32,000 bases of DNA from Microcystis aeruginosa NIES-843 (lineage in GTDB: Bacteria; Cyanobacteriota; Cyanobacteriia; Cyanobacteriales; Microcystaceae). The notes beneath the pieces were generated by a model. The model was not told the origin of the DNA. It did not search any database and saw only the letters and a list, made by a program, of their open reading frames with translations. The stretch is taken from positions 1,680,001 through 1,712,000 of the forward strand of contig NC_010296.1 of assembly GCF_000010625.1 (NCBI RefSeq), read 5' to 3'. Within the stretch, counting starts at the first letter, position 1. Every line of letters begins with the position of its first letter. Of the stretch, positions 1,470 through 11,278 are shown one piece after another. Both the position numbers and the translations under genes were made by a program.

Positions 1470-3188
1470 GTGAGTCGGCATCAAGACAGTCAAACTGACC
1501 GGAAACGAGAAGAAACACAGTTCACTCCTTACAGTGCAGAAGCGATCGCTCAACAATACCGTTACAAACCTTGGCAATTGTTTGGTCGCGCTTTCGTGAT
1601 TATTTGGTCTTTAGGATTATTTCTGCTCAGTCTCCTCTGGGACAAATGGACAAAGCAAGAAGAAGCCAATAAATACAGGCGTGCCAGCGAACTTAGGCAA
1701 ATTCTCACCCGTTTGGGTCCGACCTTCATCAAAGTCGGTCAAGCTCTCTCTACCCGTCCCGACCTCGTTCGCAAAGACTTTTTAGACGAATTAGTTAAAC
1801 TGCAAGACCAACTTCCCCCCTTCGATAACGACGTCGCTTTTGCCCTTATCGAGACAGAATTGGGGATGCCTGTAGAAAAAGCCTATCGAGAAATATCCCC
1901 CACCCCGGTAGCTGCCGCTAGTTTAGGACAGGTTTACAAAGCGATACTCCCCACCGGTGAAGAAGTAGCCGTTAAAGTGCAACGGCCCGGGCTGCGGGCG
2001 CTTTTAAGCCTCGATTTATACCTAATGCGCTGGGCCGCCCAAAAATTCGGTCGTTTATTACCCCTCAATCTCGGCCACGACCTCACCCTGATTGTCGATG
2101 AATTCGGCACCAAACTCTTTGAGGAAATCGACTATCAAAACGAAGGTCGCAACGCTGAAAAATTCGCCACCAACTTCCAAAATAACCCCGAAGTTAAAGT
2201 TCCCAGTATCTACTGGCGTTATAGTGGTCGCCGCGTCCTCACCCTAGAATGGATTGATGGCTATAAACTCACCGATACCGAGAACATCAAAGCTTTAGGA
2301 TTAGACCCCAATAATATCGTTAAAATCGGCGTCACCTCCGGATTACAGCAACTCCTCGAACACGGCTTTTTCCACGCTGATCCCCACCCGGGTAATCTTT
2401 TCGCCACTTTTGATGGTCGCATGGCCTATATCGATTTTGGCATGATGGACCAGTTAGAGGAGGAAACTAAAGAAACCCTCGCTAGTTGCGTCGTCGATTT
2501 AATTAACAAAGACTACGAAAACCTGGCCAGCAACTTTGTCAAACTGGGATTTTTAACCCCAGAAACGGATATAAAACCAATTATTCCGGCTCTAGAACGA
2601 GTTTTAGGCAATGCCATCGGTCAAAGGGTCGGTGACTTCAATTTCCGCACCATTACCGATGATTTCTCCGAATTGATGTACGAGTATCCCTTCCGGATTC
2701 CCGCCAAATTCGCCCTGATTATTCGTTCCCTCGTCACCCAAGAAGGTTTGGCCCTCACCCTCGATCCTAACTTCAAAATCGTCCAAGTGGCCTATCCCTA
2801 CGTTGCTAAACGTCTCCTGACCGGGGAATCACCCCAACTGCGGCGGCGTTTACTGGATGTCCTGTTCAAAGACGGTAAATTCCAGTGGCAACGCCTAGAA
2901 AACATGATTACAATGGCTCGCTCGGAAAGTAACTTCGATTTACTGCCCACCGCGCAATTAGGCATCACTTTTCTTCTCTCGGAAGAAGGTCGTTATCTGC
3001 GTCGTCAATTGCTATTAGCTTTGACGGAAGATGACCGTCTCCATACTGCCGAAGTGCAACGTCTCTGGGGTTTAATTCAAGGAGAATTGCAACCGCGGCG
3101 ACTCTTGGATGTGGCCATGAGCGCTTTTCGGGAATTATCGTCCCAAGGTGTGGCCGCTGTCCTTCCGCGAGAAACCAGTTCGCGTTAA
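1470..3188 (+). CDS. ABC1/UbiB (AarF) family atypical protein kinase
   Basis: 572 aa with a GTG start. Family-typical motifs are LGPTFIKVGQALSTRPDLV, AAASLGQVYKA and FFHADPHPGNL. Confidence 0.9.
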   Translation: MSRHQDSQTDRKREETQFTPYSAEAIAQQYRYKPWQLFGRAFVIIWSLGLFLLSLLWDKWTKQEEANKYRRASELRQILTRLGPTFIKVGQALSTRPDLVRKDFLDELVKLQDQLPPFDNDVAFALIETELGMPVEKAYREISPTPVAAASLGQVYKAILPTGEEVAVKVQRPGLRALLSLDLYLMRWAAQKFGRLLPLNLGHDLTLIVDEFGTKLFEEIDYQNEGRNAEKFATNFQNNPEVKVPSIYWRYSGRRVLTLEWIDGYKLTDTENIKALGLDPNNIVKIGVTSGLQQLLEHGFFHADPHPGNLFATFDGRMAYIDFGMMDQLEEETKETLASCVVDLINKDYENLASNFVKLGFLTPETDIKPIIPALERVLGNAIGQRVGDFNFRTITDDFSELMYEYPFRIPAKFALIIRSLVTQEGLALTLDPNFKIVQVAYPYVAKRLLTGESPQLRRRLLDVLFKDGKFQWQRLENMITMARSESNFDLLPTAQLGITFLLSEEGRYLRRQLLLALTEDDRLHTAEVQRLWGLIQGELQPRRLLDVAMSAFRELSSQGVAAVLPRETSSR

Positions 3189-3224
3189 AGTGTTTAAGGT
3201 CATCATCGGTTAATCACTTTTTCT

Positions 3225-3602
3225 ATGGATTATTATTTTCTGCCCCAACCGCCCTATTTTCTAGTTTTTGCCGGTTTATTTATCGGTATTACCTGCGGGG
3301 CCGCTTTTGAAGCTAGTCTCAAGCAAGTGGTTAACAATTGGTATAAAAATAAGGGTTCAGACGATCAAAATCTTTTAAAATCTAGTTCCTTACAAATTCC
3401 TTTTATCGGTATTTGTGTAGGAATCTGTCTTTTCCTTGCCTCGGGATTAGATATATTTATTCTCAATGGTTGGGTTGCCTACGCTATCTCTCTCCCGATG
3501 ACTATCTTTATCGGTGGTTTGGTTTGGAGTCAGTTAGGGGAATTATTAGGCCAATTACAGCGCGGCGGTTCTAAAGAAATTGACCTCGATTATCGGGGAT
3601 AA
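3225..3602 (+). CDS. small integral membrane protein, unknown function
   Basis: 125-aa ORF with 3-4 hydrophobic segments and no competing ORF. I recognise no family. Confidence 0.55.
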   Translation: MDYYFLPQPPYFLVFAGLFIGITCGAAFEASLKQVVNNWYKNKGSDDQNLLKSSSLQIPFIGICVGICLFLASGLDIFILNGWVAYAISLPMTIFIGGLVWSQLGELLGQLQRGGSKEIDLDYRG

Positions 3603-3731
3603 TTAGGAGGCAGCAAACATTTAGGACTAAGAGAATAGGTGTTAGCAGATAGGAAAGATCAACTACCCCACAACTAACACCAAACCCCTAGTTATACCCA
3701 ATTTCCCAGCTATTTTGGCCCGCGATTTTAG

Positions 3732-6264: not shown

Positions 6265-6397
6265 GTCAAAAAATTTTTCTCTTGACAAAAGCCCCTTGAC
6301 ATGATATTATATTCATAATGGAAAATCCGTGCGCCTACAAGCCCTATTTTCCCAAGCATTTAAACTCTAGCTCATCTTAATTCTGCTTGCCGGAGTT
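6265..6397 (+). repeat. direct repeat DR-1 (about 130 bp) with near-consensus sigma70-type promoter and two stem-loops
   Basis: Nearly identical to 7050-7179 (3 substitutions and a 3-nt A/T-run length difference). Promoter: TTGACA 6282-6287, 17-nt spacer, TATTAT 6305-6310. Stems: GGAAAAT/ATTTTCC 6320-6326/6346-6352 and CAAGCA/TGCTTG 6353-6358/6384-6389. Confidence 0.85.
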
Positions 6398-6445: not shown

Positions 6446-6700
6446 TCAATAAGCATCTTTTCGATGAATGCTACTCAATATGATAATCAGCATTTCTTGA
6501 TCTTGAATTTTGTAAATGATGCGATAATCCCCGATTCTAATTCGGTAGGTTTCATCATATCCTTTGAGTTTCTTGACTCCGCTAGGACGAGGTGTATCAG
6601 TAAGTAGTCTAATGGCAGTAATTAAGCGTTCGCGTTGTTGTTTGGGTAAGTTGTTTAGTTGTTTTTGAATGGGTTTCGGAATAATAACTCTGTAGTTCAC
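6446..6700 (-). CDS. relE: RelE/ParE-family type II toxin (mRNA interferase)
   Basis: 84 aa. YRIRIGDYRIIYKIQDQEMLIIILSSIHRKDAY is the typical RelE/StbE C-terminal core. There is a 4-nt overlap with the upstream antitoxin ORF. Confidence 0.85.
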   Translation of the reverse strand: MNYRVIIPKPIQKQLNNLPKQQRERLITAIRLLTDTPRPSGVKKLKGYDETYRIRIGDYRIIYKIQDQEMLIIILSSIHRKDAY

Positions 6701-6906
6701 GCTTGAGTTGCCTCATATTCTTCGAGGGTTAGATAGTCTCCTGCTTGATAAGCTGATTCAGAAGCGATTATGTTAGCTTGCTCTTCTTCTGTAATTTCTA
6801 TTGCAGTATGTCGTTCTTTGATAAAGAGCAAAAAGTCAAGTAATTCAGTCAAAAGGGTGTCAGGTGTCTGCTCGATTTCTTTAATTAGTTGTTCTTTGAG
6901 TGTCAT
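6697..6906 (-). CDS. type II antitoxin partner of the RelE-like toxin
   Basis: 69-aa acidic ORF immediately upstream of the toxin and overlapping it, the classic TA arrangement. Confidence 0.75.
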   Translation of the reverse strand: MTLKEQLIKEIEQTPDTLLTELLDFLLFIKERHTAIEITEEEQANIIASESAYQAGDYLTLEEYEATQA

Positions 6907-6938: not shown

Positions 6939-6996
6939 TGATTAATTCCATCATAGTCGATGATTAGGTGGTGGGTTACTGGACTAGGTAATAGGT

Positions 6997-7024
6997 GTAG
7001 GGGTAATTCATGAATTACCCCTAC
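6997..7024. repeat. 28-bp perfect palindrome GTAGGGGTAATTCA|TGAATTACCCCTAC
   Basis: Read directly. It lies between the TA cassette and DR-2. Confidence 0.9.
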
Positions 7025-7049
7025 AATTGGCTAGGTTTTTCTGGATGTT

Positions 7050-7179
7050 GTCAAAATTTTCTCTTGACAAAAGCCCCTTGACATGATATTATATTCATAA
7101 TGGAAAATCCGTGCGCCTACAAGTCCTATTTTCCCAAGCATTTAAACTCTAACTCATCTTGATTCTGCTTGCCGGAGTT
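7050..7179 (+). repeat. direct repeat DR-2 (copy of 6265-6397) with the same promoter-like core
   Basis: TTGACA 7064-7069, 17-nt spacer, TATTAT 7087-7092. Both stem-loops are conserved. Confidence 0.85.
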
Positions 7180-7287: not shown

Positions 7288-8023
7288 TTAGTTGTCCTGT
7301 TTATTCGACTTGTTAGATTTAGCTAGGTTGTGCTTGAAGAAAGCACCAAATCCTAATACACCTAAGCCGAAAATTGTGCTGGGTTCAGGTACTGCTTGAA
7401 CTGTCACGCTAAAACTTCCAGTGTTGCCTTTCCATCCAAAACCATCCATTGGACCCAGGAAGAGGCGAGTTGCACCAGTAGGAACGATGAAATTCTGCAC
7501 AGCACCAGTGCCGGTTCCTGTCAGTCCATCGCCAATGAAGAAAACTTGCTTAAGTTGTGGAGCTAACGAAGAAAAATTAAGTCCAATTGAAGAAAAGTTA
7601 AGAGCTGCAGGTGCAGAAGTCGAATCTGGCTGGCTGTTATCTAAAAAGACACCGACAAGAGAATTAATCGGAGCGGTAATATTGGAAATTCCATTTTGAC
7701 TCCCAGGCGAATGGCTAATAAAACTTCCCCCATCTGGCGTAGCAGTGGGTGGGGGTAGGAAGGGAGTATTGCTGACTGCCCCGGTCACGGAGAAATTGAG
7801 CGTTTGTCCTGGAATAAGGGAAAGTCCCGACACTTGTACAGGAGATTGAGCGGGAGCAGCATCTATGAAGGAAGCTGTAGAGCCATTTGGCATCCCTGCC
7901 AGCCAAGGATTAGATTCGCCAGCAACCGTAATAGTTGCCGCTTGTACTCCACTGGCGACGGAGAGACTGATAAGTATTGTCCCCCCCCCCCACGAAGTTT
8001 TTGATTAGTTTTGCTAATGTCAC
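7288..8023 (-). pseudogene. PEP-CTERM-anchored secreted protein, reading frame interrupted by a G11 homopolymer (C11 on + strand)
   Basis: ORF 7288..7893 ends in VPEPSTIFGLGVLGFGAFFKHNLAKSNKSNK (PEP motif, TM helix, basic tail) but has no signal peptide. AGGAGG (8038-8033) plus GTG (8023-8021) opens MTLAKLIKNFVGGG..., which stops at 7912-7910. Deleting one G from the run fuses the two frames and yields a signal peptide (...ILISLSVASGVQA|ATITV). Confidence 0.75.
7981..7991. repeat. C11/G11 homopolymer tract inside the signal-peptide codons of the PEP-CTERM gene
   Basis: Counted directly: 7981-7991 are all C, flanked by T (7980) and A (7992). Confidence 0.95.
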
Positions 8024-8377
8024 AACTAAATGCCTCCTAAAAGTGTTGTTGCGCTTGAAATTGCCCAGTAGTTTACCAAAAATGACCGGCGTTGTCAAGT
8101 TTATTTATGGCGCGTCAGAGCAGACTTGACAACGCTTTAAGAGCAAGGCTTTCGTTGTGTCGCAATTCATTCTTCATATTCTGATCTGACAACGCCAAAA
8201 TTTAGGCACTTTTTCCCTGAAAATTAGGTAATTGACCCCCTGAAAAACCCTACACCCCACACCCTGCCCCCACCAAGAGACTTTTTCAGCAAACCATATC
8301 TAAGCGGGAAAAATCCCTTTTATGTAGTCTGTGATACTGTTTTTGGGATTGAGATCGTCTAAGGTCAAGGAAATTGC

Positions 8378-8503
8378 TTCTAGGGTTCCGATTTAAGCGT
8401 GCTTAAATGTCAGGTCCGAGAGGAGCAAGCTAGTCTTAAATGAGCGGATCAAAAATTTTTTCCGTCTAAGCTGGCTACACGGCGGGATAAAAGCCCGGGA
8501 GAC
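8378..8503 (+). promoter_or_regulatory. guanidine-I riboswitch aptamer (ykkC-yxkD class)
   Basis: Carries the conserved ykkC blocks CUAGGGUUCCG (8380-8390), GGUCCGAGAG (8413-8422) and CUACACGGCGGGAUAAAAGCCCGGGAGA (8475-8502), in the 5' leader of the ureohydrolase gene. Confidence 0.9.
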
Positions 8504-8568: not shown

Positions 8569-9750
8569 ATGATGTCCGAGGAATCTACTTTTCAACCCCC
8601 GCATTTAACCGAAGCTGAACAGGCCCTAGAAAAAGAACGCCATTTGCCCCTAACCGGTTGGCAACAGGAAGTTTCCCAGGGGTTAACCTACGGTTTAGAG
8701 GCGGCCGATAGTATTCGCGATCGCAGTATTCCCACCTTTTCCAGGGGTGAGTTACCCCACTATGCGGGAATTAACACCTTTATGAAGGCCCCCTATTTGG
8801 AAGATGTGCGGAATGTGGGCAATTATGACGTGGCAATCGTCGGTGTTCCCCATGATTCGGGGACAACTTACCGACCCGGAACTCGTTTTGGTCCCCAAGG
8901 AATTCGGCGGATTTCGGCCCTTTATACGCCCTACAATTTTGAATTAGGAGTAGATCTGCGCGAACAAATTACTCTCTGTGATCTGGGGGATATTTTCACC
9001 ATTCCTGCTAATAATGAAAAGTCCTTCGATCAAATCTCGAAGGGGGTTGCCCATGTCTTTAGTTCTGGCGCCTTGCCGATTATTTTAGGGGGTGATCATT
9101 CCATTGGTTTTCCGACAGTGCGGGGTATTTGTCGGCATTTAGGGGATAAAAAAGTCGGTATTATTCACTTTGATCGCCATGTGGATACTCAGGAAACGGA
9201 TTTAGATGAACGGATGCACACTTGCCCCTGGTTTCATGCCACCAATATGAAAAATGCTCCTGCTAAAAATCTCGTCCAATTAGGGATTGGTGGTTGGCAA
9301 GTTCCCCGTCAAGGTGTTAAAGTTTGCCGCGAGCGGGCCACTAATATTTTGACCGTCACCGACATTGTGGAACGAGGCATTGATGCGGCCGCCGAATTTG
9401 CCTTAGAACGAGCTTTAGATGGTACGGATTGCGTTTGGATTAGTTTCGATATTGATTGCATTGATGCCGGTTTTGTCCCCGGTACAGGTTGGCCAGAACC
9501 TGGCGGTTTATTACCCCGTGAAGCCTTAGCTTTATTAGGTAAAATTATTCAAAAAGCTCCCATTTGTGGTATGGAAGTGGTGGAAGTTTCCCCTCCCTAC
9601 GATATTAGTGATATGACCTCTTTGATGGCTACCCGTGTTATTTGTGATGCCATGGCCCATCTGGTTATTTCAGGTCAATTACCCCGTAAAGAAAAGCCCT
9701 ATTATATTCATTCTGATGCCAATATGGAGGTTGATGAACCTTGGATTTAA
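8569..9750 (+). CDS. gdmH: arginase/agmatinase-family ureohydrolase, predicted Ni-dependent guanidine hydrolase (GdmH / Sll1077-type)
   Basis: 393 aa with ureohydrolase metal-binding motifs (GGDHSIGFP, HFDRHVDT, SFDIDCIDAGF). The context of a ykkC riboswitch upstream and hypA/hypB-like genes plus an ABC importer downstream matches the Synechocystis gdmH operon. Confidence 0.85.
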   Translation: MMSEESTFQPPHLTEAEQALEKERHLPLTGWQQEVSQGLTYGLEAADSIRDRSIPTFSRGELPHYAGINTFMKAPYLEDVRNVGNYDVAIVGVPHDSGTTYRPGTRFGPQGIRRISALYTPYNFELGVDLREQITLCDLGDIFTIPANNEKSFDQISKGVAHVFSSGALPIILGGDHSIGFPTVRGICRHLGDKKVGIIHFDRHVDTQETDLDERMHTCPWFHATNMKNAPAKNLVQLGIGGWQVPRQGVKVCRERATNILTVTDIVERGIDAAAEFALERALDGTDCVWISFDIDCIDAGFVPGTGWPEPGGLLPREALALLGKIIQKAPICGMEVVEVSPPYDISDMTSLMATRVICDAMAHLVISGQLPRKEKPYYIHSDANMEVDEPWI

Positions 9751-10173: not shown

Positions 10174-10530
10174 ATGCACGAAACTGATATGACCAAGGCG
10201 TTAATTATGACAGTTCGAGATTGGTATGATAGCCAACCTGAAAAGCTCAAAATTGAAAAAATTCATCTCATGGTTGGTGAATTTACCTGTGTCGAACCGG
10301 TCAGTTTACAATTTGCCTTTGAAGTTCAAACTGCCAATACTTTTCTTGCCGGCGTGGAATTAGCTATTAAAAATATTCCCCTAATTGCTTATTGTCATTG
10401 CTGCCAAAAGGATTATCAACCCCAAATTGGCCAGCAATATTCCTGCCCAACTTGTCGATCGCCGATGGAGGATATTCGTTCAGGTCGAGAGTTAAAAATT
10501 GACCACATTGAATATTCTTTACTTTTTTAA
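10174..10530 (+). CDS. ghaA: HypA-like nickel metallochaperone (GhaA-type accessory protein)
   Basis: 118 aa. It has the N-terminal MHE Ni-binding motif and zinc-site pairs CHCC...CPTC (CxxC-x12-CxxC). Confidence 0.85.
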   Translation: MHETDMTKALIMTVRDWYDSQPEKLKIEKIHLMVGEFTCVEPVSLQFAFEVQTANTFLAGVELAIKNIPLIAYCHCCQKDYQPQIGQQYSCPTCRSPMEDIRSGRELKIDHIEYSLLF

Positions 10531-10561: not shown

Positions 10562-11278
10562 ATGATCAATTATTCATTCTCAACTAAAATGCACCAAACT
10601 TTTGACGCAGCCCTAGAAATTAATCTACTTCATGCCAATCAAACAGGAGCCGATCACAACCGGGAACATTTTGACGAGTGGGGCATTACCTGTTTAAACT
10701 TGATGAGTAGTCCCGGTGCGGGTAAAACTGTGTTATTGGAAAAAACCCTCGCAGCCTTAAAAGATCAATTAAAAATGGCTGTTATTGAAGGTGATATGAC
10801 TACAGAACTAGATGCAGAGCGCCTGAGACAATATGGAGTTCCCGTGATTGCCATTAATACGGGTCGCTCCTGTCACTTAGATTCCAAAATGGTAGCCGGG
10901 GGAATTCATCGTTTCAAAGAAGATTATAACCCCAAAGAGTTTGATTTATTGTTGGTGGAAAATGTGGGAAATTTAGTTTGTCCCGCCGAATTTGAGGTAG
11001 GGGAACACGCTAAAGTTGCTCTATTAAGTATTACTGAAGGAGAAGATAAACCCCTCAAATATCCAATTATGTTTCAAGAAGCGGATTGTCTGATTATTAC
11101 CAAATTAGATCTGGCTCCTTATTTAGAGATTGATTTAAAACGTTTAGAAGCAAATGTTCGTTCTATGAATCCCGATGTAAAGATTATTGCTCTTTCTGCT
11201 CAAACAGGAGAAGGTTTAGAAGAGTGGTTAAATTGGCTAAAAAGCCAAGTCAATATTCCGAGATTTTTGAATTGTTAA
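10562..11278 (+). CDS. ghaB: HypB-like nickel-dependent GTPase (GhaB-type accessory protein)
   Basis: 238 aa with P-loop [20 protein letters not shown] and TKLDL (NKxD-like) motifs typical of HypB. The start may instead be the internal Met 10. Confidence 0.85.

Follow-up and report, generated by a model that had tools for sequence, protein, structure and literature searches.

The gene described here lies on the minus strand of a 32-kb window of the Microcystis aeruginosa NIES-843 chromosome (the window being the whole stretch of 32,000 nucleotides (nt) that was analysed), and is predicted to encode a PEP-CTERM protein whose signal-peptide codons contain a run of eleven G residues (G11). In the existing annotation, only an open reading frame (ORF) of 201 amino acids (aa) is recorded, starting 87 nt after the tract. 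A first-pass annotation of the window, made from the sequence alone, had proposed that this is a contingency locus, in which slipped-strand changes of tract length toggle export of a surface protein. It suggested a comparison of tract length among strains, and named two outcomes that would speak against the proposal, namely a uniform G10 (i.e. an assembly error) or a uniform G11 followed by a decayed gene. The features of the gene, from the upstream region to the C-terminal end, are as follows.

8089-8135, minus strand: perfect 11-nt inverted repeat, GCGTTGTCAAG (8135-8125) and CTTGACAACGC (8099-8089), the second arm lying over the -35 box
8070-8098, minus strand: sigma-70-type promoter, TTGACA, 17-nt spacer and TAAACT, with a TG extension (10/12 matches)
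8033-8038, minus strand: ribosome binding site (RBS) AGGAGG, 9 nt ahead of the start codon
7992-8023, minus strand: GTG start and signal-peptide n-region MTLAKLIKNFV, net charge +2, from translation
7981-7991, minus strand: G11 homopolymer, the putative frameshift switch; it codes for Gly-Gly-Gly where the n-region meets the h-region, from the sequence and its frames
7939-7980, minus strand: signal-peptide hydrophobic core and cleavage region TILISLSVASGVQA, in the frame of the mature protein only with G7, G10 or G13
7910-7912, minus strand: TAA stop of the out-of-frame 37-codon product (G11), from the sequence
7396-7938, minus strand: mature beta-sandwich domain, beginning ATITVAGESNPWLAGMPNGS..., from homologs and an AlphaFold model
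7291-7395, minus strand: PEP-CTERM sorting signal (VPEPS, hydrophobic helix, basic tail), from profiles above their curated cut-offs
7288-7893, minus strand: annotated 201-aa ORF (BAG01705.1 / WP_012265164.1), truncated so that it begins at an internal Met, which is invariant, and lacks a signal peptide

Translation of the region bore out the layout that had been proposed. The AGGAGG (8038-8033), the 9-nt spacer and the GTG (8023-8021) are all present on the minus strand, and are followed by exactly 11 G at 7991-7981 (C11 at 7981-7991 of the plus strand). The tract forms codons 11-14 of the leader, i.e. a long homopolymer lies within the coding region near the 5' end of the gene. In the G11 frame the translation reads MTLAKLIKNFVGGGDNTYQ... 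and ends after 37 codons at the TAA at 7912-7910. With 10 or 13 G, as had also been predicted, and likewise with 7, the frame continues as ...GGG(G)TILISLSVASGVQA and, beyond the cleavage point, ATITVAG... into ORF 7288-7893, giving a protein of about 244 aa (243-245). The whole leader in the G10-type reading from the GTG is MTLAKLIKNFVGGGTILISLSVASGVQA, again followed by ATITVAG.... Taken together, the best-supported reading is that the NIES-843 copy, with its G11, is OFF (no signal-bearing product), and that deletion of a single G would turn it ON.

The restored signal peptide and the C-terminal anchor were supported by hydropathy, by the signal peptides of homologs and by profile scores. 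Features of a Sec signal peptide were found in the in-frame reading only (n-region charge +2, hydropathy peak 2.0-2.3, and the motif VQA/A, with cleavage predicted after VQA), and the 201-aa product has no hydrophobic N-terminus. At the other end, the protein has a PEP motif, a transmembrane helix and a basic cluster, and it exceeded the cut-offs of TIGR04155 cyano_PEP (34.2 bits, cut-off 21.6), PF07589 (21.6, cut-off 20.7) and TIGR02595 (21.7, cut-off 16).

The family comprises 2499 homologs from many phyla, and the alignment took in sequences from Burkholderiales, Chthonomonadales, Methylococcaceae and others. The conserved domain begins with (V)PGTSDPWLAGMPDGSTAS, upstream of the annotated ATG, the Met of which is an invariant internal residue. 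Since the domain starts upstream of this ATG, and since the restored leader is hydrophobic and the N-terminus of the 201-aa product is not, the annotated ORF is a truncation. The homologs from other phyla all carry hydrophobic signal peptides of their own ahead of the domain, and Gly-Gly-Gly stretches are absent from them, indicating that the poly-G tract was inserted, specifically in Microcystis, into what is otherwise an ordinary signal peptide.

In a confident AlphaFold model of the protein in the mature frame (predicted local distance difference test score, pLDDT, 88.8; 230 aa), the anchor helix, at residues 200-222, came after a beta-sandwich. A fold search gave one notable match, to the PllA/LecA-type lectin domain (E=5e-3, TM-score 0.65 on the target), which is too weak to assign a function, and a PDB sequence search with the family profile found no relative. 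No exosortase was detected among the neighbouring genes scanned, all of which lie within the window. The best explanation of these features is that the gene product is a PEP-CTERM beta-sandwich surface protein, probably exported and sorted by an exosortase.

The control region was also conserved, as was the leader across its 24 distinct versions. The same promoter element was found upstream of both the type-A and the type-B related loci, and every related locus that reaches far enough carries AGGAGG, AAGAGG or AGGCGG at the position of the RBS. The inverted repeat was kept with 0-1 mismatches in four loci (L006, L010, L025 and L026). Lying over the -35 box, it is a candidate operator, which may add transcriptional control to that exerted by the tract.

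Length and reading frame of the tract in Microcystis

The G11 tract is the sole run of at least 7 G or C bases in the window, which has a GC content of 41%. Runs of 11 or more are expected 0.0014 times in such a window, and 4 of 2000 shuffled sequences reached 11. GGG is the rarest Gly codon in the genes of the window (15.5%), and the remaining Gly-Gly-Gly tripeptides encoded by these genes (n=4) all use mixed codons. As GGG is the rarest Gly codon, and as homologs from outside Microcystis lack the GGG stretch, the pure G run is not forced by the coding requirement.

Homopolymers are error-prone on some sequencing platforms, and a true length of G10 misread as G11 would place the NIES-843 gene in frame. 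The genome of NIES-843 was reportedly Sanger-sequenced. An exact-protein look-up recovered the identical 201-aa allele from ten other assemblies, five from ENA (made with MEGAHIT) and five from Logan (made from SRA runs). Public runs with this allele include SRR14576921, SRR14576924, SRR6470676, SRR6470679 and SRR28374917. The tract was G11 in nine of these ten independent short-read assemblies and G12 in one (SRR14576921); another allele had G9 in all eight of its assemblies. With nine independent assemblies in agreement, the G11 of this record cannot be put down to faulty assembly. These results contradict the first of the two adverse outcomes, the uniform G10, and a sequencing or assembly error was rejected, its probability being practically negligible.

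Two further observations were made on this allele. The G11 and G12 forms of the identical allele in L033 (SRR14576924) and L035 (SRR14576921) come from neighbouring run accessions, and the difference would be variation within a lineage if both runs share one study or culture. Two metagenome contigs (L030 and L031) carry the identical 201-aa G11 allele next to different neighbours, L030 having two unrelated minus-strand genes downstream, and L031 an amidase / peptidoglycan (PG)-binding gene upstream. This reflects either rearrangement around the cassette or chimeric assembly.

The comparison among strains was made on the NIES-843 window and 46 further Microcystis loci, which were retrieved by scanning genomes and metagenomes or by exact-protein look-up, giving 47 loci with 24 distinct leader sequences. 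A collection of viral contigs scanned for the leader DNA gave 0 matches. The tract occupied the same codon position in 47/47 loci, and both pure runs of G8 to G12 and interrupted versions were found. Counted by leader, pure runs were G8 in four, G9 in nine, G10 in three, G11 in two and G12 in one.

Length differed even among nearly identical alleles. Three series of alleles shared the sequences flanking the tract:

flank ...CTCCATT-G8/G9/G10-TAGTACTT (L057, L012, L009): OFF, OFF, ON
flank ...TTCGT-G8/G9/G10-ATAATACTT (L039, L042, L049): OFF, OFF, ON
flank ...TTCGT-G8/G11/G12-ACAATACTT (L001, the window, L035): all three OFF

The window and L035 (G11/G12) had no mismatch in 163 nt upstream and 690 nt downstream, and the single base by which they differed lay in the tract or at its 3' edge; the same was true of L040 and L042. 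L012 and L057 (G9/G8) had 3 differences in about 830 nt. The identity of the flanks in the first two pairs shows that the tract mutates faster than the approximately 850 flanking positions combined.

All three reading phases (0, 1 and 2) occurred, including on identical flanks. Pure tracts were ON in 4 of 19 distinct leaders and OFF in 15, which does not differ from the one third expected by chance (p=0.33). Tracts broken by synonymous Gly codons (GGCGGCGGG, GGAGGCGGGG, GGCGGGGGG twice, and GGTGGGGGGG) were ON in 5/5, and no interrupted allele was out of frame (interrupted vs pure tracts, Fisher one-sided p=0.003). The interrupted alleles are thus found in one state only, and such 'locked-ON' forms are expected if selection demands the zero frame and a pure run breaks it. 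P0136, a second-family allele known as protein only (...KNSVGGWLILISL), implies that a GGG to TGG substitution has interrupted the run. The allele is in frame and probably represents another locked-ON variant.

In-frame and out-of-frame alleles thus coexist, and the out-of-frame genes were otherwise intact. A complete ORF in the mature frame, of 214-236 codons, was present in 47/47 loci, and in NIES-843 the 228 codons downstream of the tract are intact. The look-ups were conditioned on a called ORF, and the tests were repeated on the window and the tblastn-derived loci only. In this set, indel blocks were multiples of three in 9/9 cases, and the 381 substitutions counted for the window-type family on a minimum spanning tree would have created no stop codon with a probability of about 1e-4; for all alleles the figures were 11/11 and 3e-6.

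These data bear directly on the possibility that the NIES-843 copy is simply a frameshifted, decaying pseudogene. The copy is out of frame, is annotated as a truncated 201-aa ORF and has no catalogued ON form, all of which a pseudogene would explain. However, the downstream ORF is intact in the window and the 46 related loci, with neither stops nor out-of-frame indels, at a probability (no stop) of about 1e-4 or lower. The ratio of nonsynonymous to synonymous substitution rates (dN/dS) was weakly below 1, and promoter, RBS and start codon are all conserved. A simple pseudogene was rejected on the basis of the intact ORFs and in-frame indels, and is highly improbable. The second adverse outcome, a uniform G11 with downstream decay, was likewise contradicted, as lengths vary and the ORFs are complete.

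The shared cassette, the proposed switch and the neighbouring genes

At least two central domains, which are only about 40% identical to each other, were framed by a common tract-bearing leader and a common C-terminal anchor; the second domain begins with ATITIPVTVNSKAAPWLW.... In the second family, G8 alleles were OFF, G9 ON, G11 OFF (called as a 175-aa truncation) and interrupted alleles ON. The cassette was found in three kinds of upstream context. Since leader, tract and anchor frame at least two different domains, the switch would belong to a cassette used by several surface-protein genes of Microcystis.

Three loci combine these parts differently. L026 (gene 3001-3699) occupies the chromosomal locus of the window, with the arginase-family gene upstream and an ArsP permease downstream, and has the leader of the window and an identical anchor, but carries the second central domain (~40% identity). 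L027 is a mosaic in which the leader of the window is joined to the second domain, and L038 is a mosaic whose mature coding sequence is 99.1% identical to that of the window, with another leader and upstream region. The breakpoints of L027 and L038 lie at the leader. Such structures suggest that one allelic cassette has been replaced by another through recombination at the conserved ends.

The length polymorphism, the coexistence of ON and OFF alleles and the intact ORFs support the contingency-locus reading of the first-pass annotation. The tract in the signal-peptide codons is probably a slipped-strand translational ON/OFF switch, which would be OFF in NIES-843. In the proposed mechanism, slipped-strand mispairing at replication would add or remove G residues in a hypermutable tract. 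With G7, G10 or G13, a ribosome starting at GTG 8023 would read through Gly-Gly-Gly, the hydrophobic core, the cleavage site and the mature domain to the anchor (ON); with other lengths it would stop within about 14-53 codons and yield no signal-bearing protein (OFF). The junction of the n- and h-regions, where the tract lies, would tolerate one Gly more or less, so that steps of three bases stay functional. The tract, its frames, the length polymorphism, the intact ORFs and the locked-ON alleles are observed, whereas slippage at replication as the source of the length changes, reversibility within a clone, export and exosortase sorting, and any adaptive benefit are presumed.

A different account of the same data is that the tract is a mutational hot spot, which repeatedly inactivates a dispensable gene and is neither adaptive nor reversible; ON alleles would then be those not yet hit, and interrupted tracts would be favoured because the pure tract is a liability. 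The dominance of OFF alleles (15/19 pure-tract leaders) agrees with this, as do the dN/dS of 0.5-0.7 and the history of the NIES-843 allele, which was G11 or G12 in every assembly found and has no ON form among catalogued proteins. However, selection should remove a liability, whereas a pure run, built from the rarest Gly codon, is retained at one codon position across two cassette families and three upstream contexts. Moreover, OFF alleles could stay free of secondary damage only if they often reverted to ON or were converted by ON copies, and the ON fraction fits the one third of a free-running tract. A hot spot of this kind is considered unlikely.

Expression that does not depend on tract length was also considered. 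Ribosomal +1/-1 slippage of tRNA-Gly, or stuttering of RNA polymerase, could give constitutive low-level expression of OFF alleles; a run of 8-12 G allows perfect tRNA-Gly re-pairing in any frame, and the intact ORFs of OFF alleles would be explained as well. A programmed event, however, normally fixes one phase and is accompanied by a stimulatory element, whereas the in-frame and both out-of-frame phases occur here on identical flanks. No stimulatory element was seen, there being no Rfam match to a known RNA element at the site, and the interrupted, non-slipping tracts are always in the zero frame, which indicates that this frame is demanded by selection. Most documented cases of efficient transcriptional slippage are at A/T runs. 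Recoding of this type is very unlikely as the main explanation.

A change in the length of a similar tract has been recorded in culture in NIES-298, a strain of the same species. There, a (C)12 to 11 change was mapped to 3,210,317 on the chromosome and given as 'intergenic (-199/-259)', with the PEP-CTERM gene ACNQK5_RS15405 (minus strand) on one side and a Uma2 gene on the other. It reached 94-96% frequency in both cyanophage-resistant subpopulations and was absent from the six susceptible ones (bioRxiv 10.64898/2026.07.12.738045). Meza-Padilla & Nissimov (2026) deprioritised it as far from any gene. As in the annotation of the window, the G12 lies on the coding strand upstream of the annotated PEP-CTERM start; it differs in being 199 nt from that start, as against 87 nt in the window, and in having Uma2 as a neighbour. 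It may be the leader tract of another paralog, or a promoter tract, and its connection with the device in the window is a lead only. This change in culture, and the G11 and G12 forms of the NIES-843 allele in two sequencing runs, are indirect hints at reversible switching within a clonal population. The same table lists (CA)15 to 19 inside a hypothetical gene, ACNQK5_RS09745, indicating that other simple-sequence repeats also change length in Microcystis cultures.

Several points weigh against the switch. All of the evidence for it comes from comparison between strains and metagenomes, and retrieval was biased, in that look-ups with truncated proteins yield OFF alleles and look-ups with full-length proteins ON alleles; in the unbiased subset found by tblastn only, pure tracts were ON in 2/10. 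The consensus of the NIES-843 allele was stably G11 in 9/10 assemblies, and no in-frame form (G7, G10 or G13) of this exact allele occurs in about 15 billion catalogued proteins, suggesting that the NIES-843 lineage may be OFF in the long term. The dN/dS of 0.5-0.7 was the same for ON and OFF pairs and indicates weak constraint; it fits a variable surface protein, and is uninformative alone. Leaky ribosomal or transcriptional slippage on the G run may allow some low-level expression of OFF alleles. Finally, Uma2 does not adjoin the PEP-CTERM gene at any locus sampled, the divergent upstream genes there being of the arginase family or DUF3782, nor does any of these loci have a start codon some 199 nt beyond the tract, and the link to NIES-298 is not established.

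The remaining features of the window concern the surroundings of the gene. A guanidine-I riboswitch (RF00442) was found at 8369-8503 on the plus strand (82.3 bits, gathering score 63), ahead of an arginase-family gene. The genes that follow the riboswitch (8569-9750, 10174-10530 and 10562-11278) encode the arginase-family protein, then HypA- and HypB/CobW-like proteins together with an NMT1-type binding protein, and this operon is transcribed divergently from the PEP-CTERM gene. We take it to resemble the operon of a Ni-dependent guanidine hydrolase with its nickel chaperones, an enzyme reportedly described by Funck et al. in 2022.

A 127-nt direct repeat (6271-6397 and 7053-7179, 97% identical) flanks a gene pair for a ParE toxin and a DUF2281-like antitoxin (6446-6906). 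L026, at the same chromosomal locus, lacks this toxin-antitoxin module, and other strains carry a different small-gene pair at this place, either ParE with a 74-aa gene or one including a PIN gene; on this evidence the module looks like an insertion between the repeat copies. A perfect 30-bp palindrome without spacer (6996-7025, TGTAGGGGTAATTCA / TGAATTACCCCTACA) occupies part of the interval that separates the antitoxin gene from the second repeat copy.

Significance and comparison with known systems

Blooms of Microcystis are a major water-quality problem, and both their variable colony formation and their rapid escape from cyanophages are poorly understood. One Microcystis genome holds 62 PEP-CTERM genes, and expression of such genes is higher in colonies (PMC12642866). 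The latter, like the association with phage resistance in NIES-298, is circumstantial evidence that the switch may alter a phenotype under fluctuating selection. If the switch is real, a heritable, stochastic and reversible change of a surface protein would offer a concrete mechanism for colony variation and phage escape, and would add a free-living phototroph to the host-adapted pathogens in which contingency loci are studied. It is conceivable, although doubtful, that Microcystis has a genus-wide contingency system, in which shared promoter-leader-poly-G cassettes with swappable domains would produce a stochastic subset of surface proteins deciding phage adsorption and/or colony formation; the C12 to C11 change in NIES-298 would then be one such switch and a candidate cause of resistance.

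In current annotations such genes appear as truncated ORFs of about 175-230 aa and the tract as 'intergenic'. Variant-calling studies can for that reason discard changes in the tract, as the NIES-298 preprint did near another PEP-CTERM gene. Tract length should therefore be counted as a phenotype-relevant state in population genomics of Microcystis.

The first-pass annotation had remarked that a device of this kind is hardly documented in cyanobacteria, and this fits the searchable literature, in which no description of repeat-driven phase variation in cyanobacteria was found; one Microcystis paper speculates that phase variation 'may occur' for restriction systems. The present data support a new setting for poly-G translational phase variation, namely a cyanobacterium, putative exosortase substrates and a shared leader cassette.

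The closest parallel in layout is pilC of Neisseria gonorrhoeae and N. meningitidis, in which Jonsson et al. (1991) reportedly described a poly-G tract in the signal-peptide-coding region. In both cases a G homopolymer lies in the leader codons of an exported surface-associated protein, a frameshift toggles translation (putatively so in Microcystis), and the Gly codons tolerate changes of three bases. Unlike the Microcystis protein, the product of pilC is a pilus-tip adhesin of a host-adapted pathogen and not an exosortase substrate, and its switching was shown experimentally, whereas that in Microcystis is deduced from comparison.

The cassette structure is closer to that of the Neisseria opa family, which is said to carry CTCTT pentamer repeats in its leader codons (Stern et al., 1986). 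The opa paralogs have a conserved repeat-bearing leader and a conserved C-terminal part around variable centres, are independently ON or OFF, and form recombination mosaics comparable to the Microcystis loci L027, L038 and L026. They differ in that the repeat is a pentamer and not a homopolymer, and in that the products are beta-barrel outer-membrane proteins.

Intragenic G/C runs of about 8-13, with stochastic frameshifting of surface genes and lengths that vary between isolates, also occur in Campylobacter jejuni and in the meningococcal haemoglobin receptor genes hmbR and hpuAB (PMC8355987, PMC3786947). The bacteria in those accounts are animal-associated, with many such loci per genome and measured rates of switching, whereas Microcystis is a free-living bloom former.

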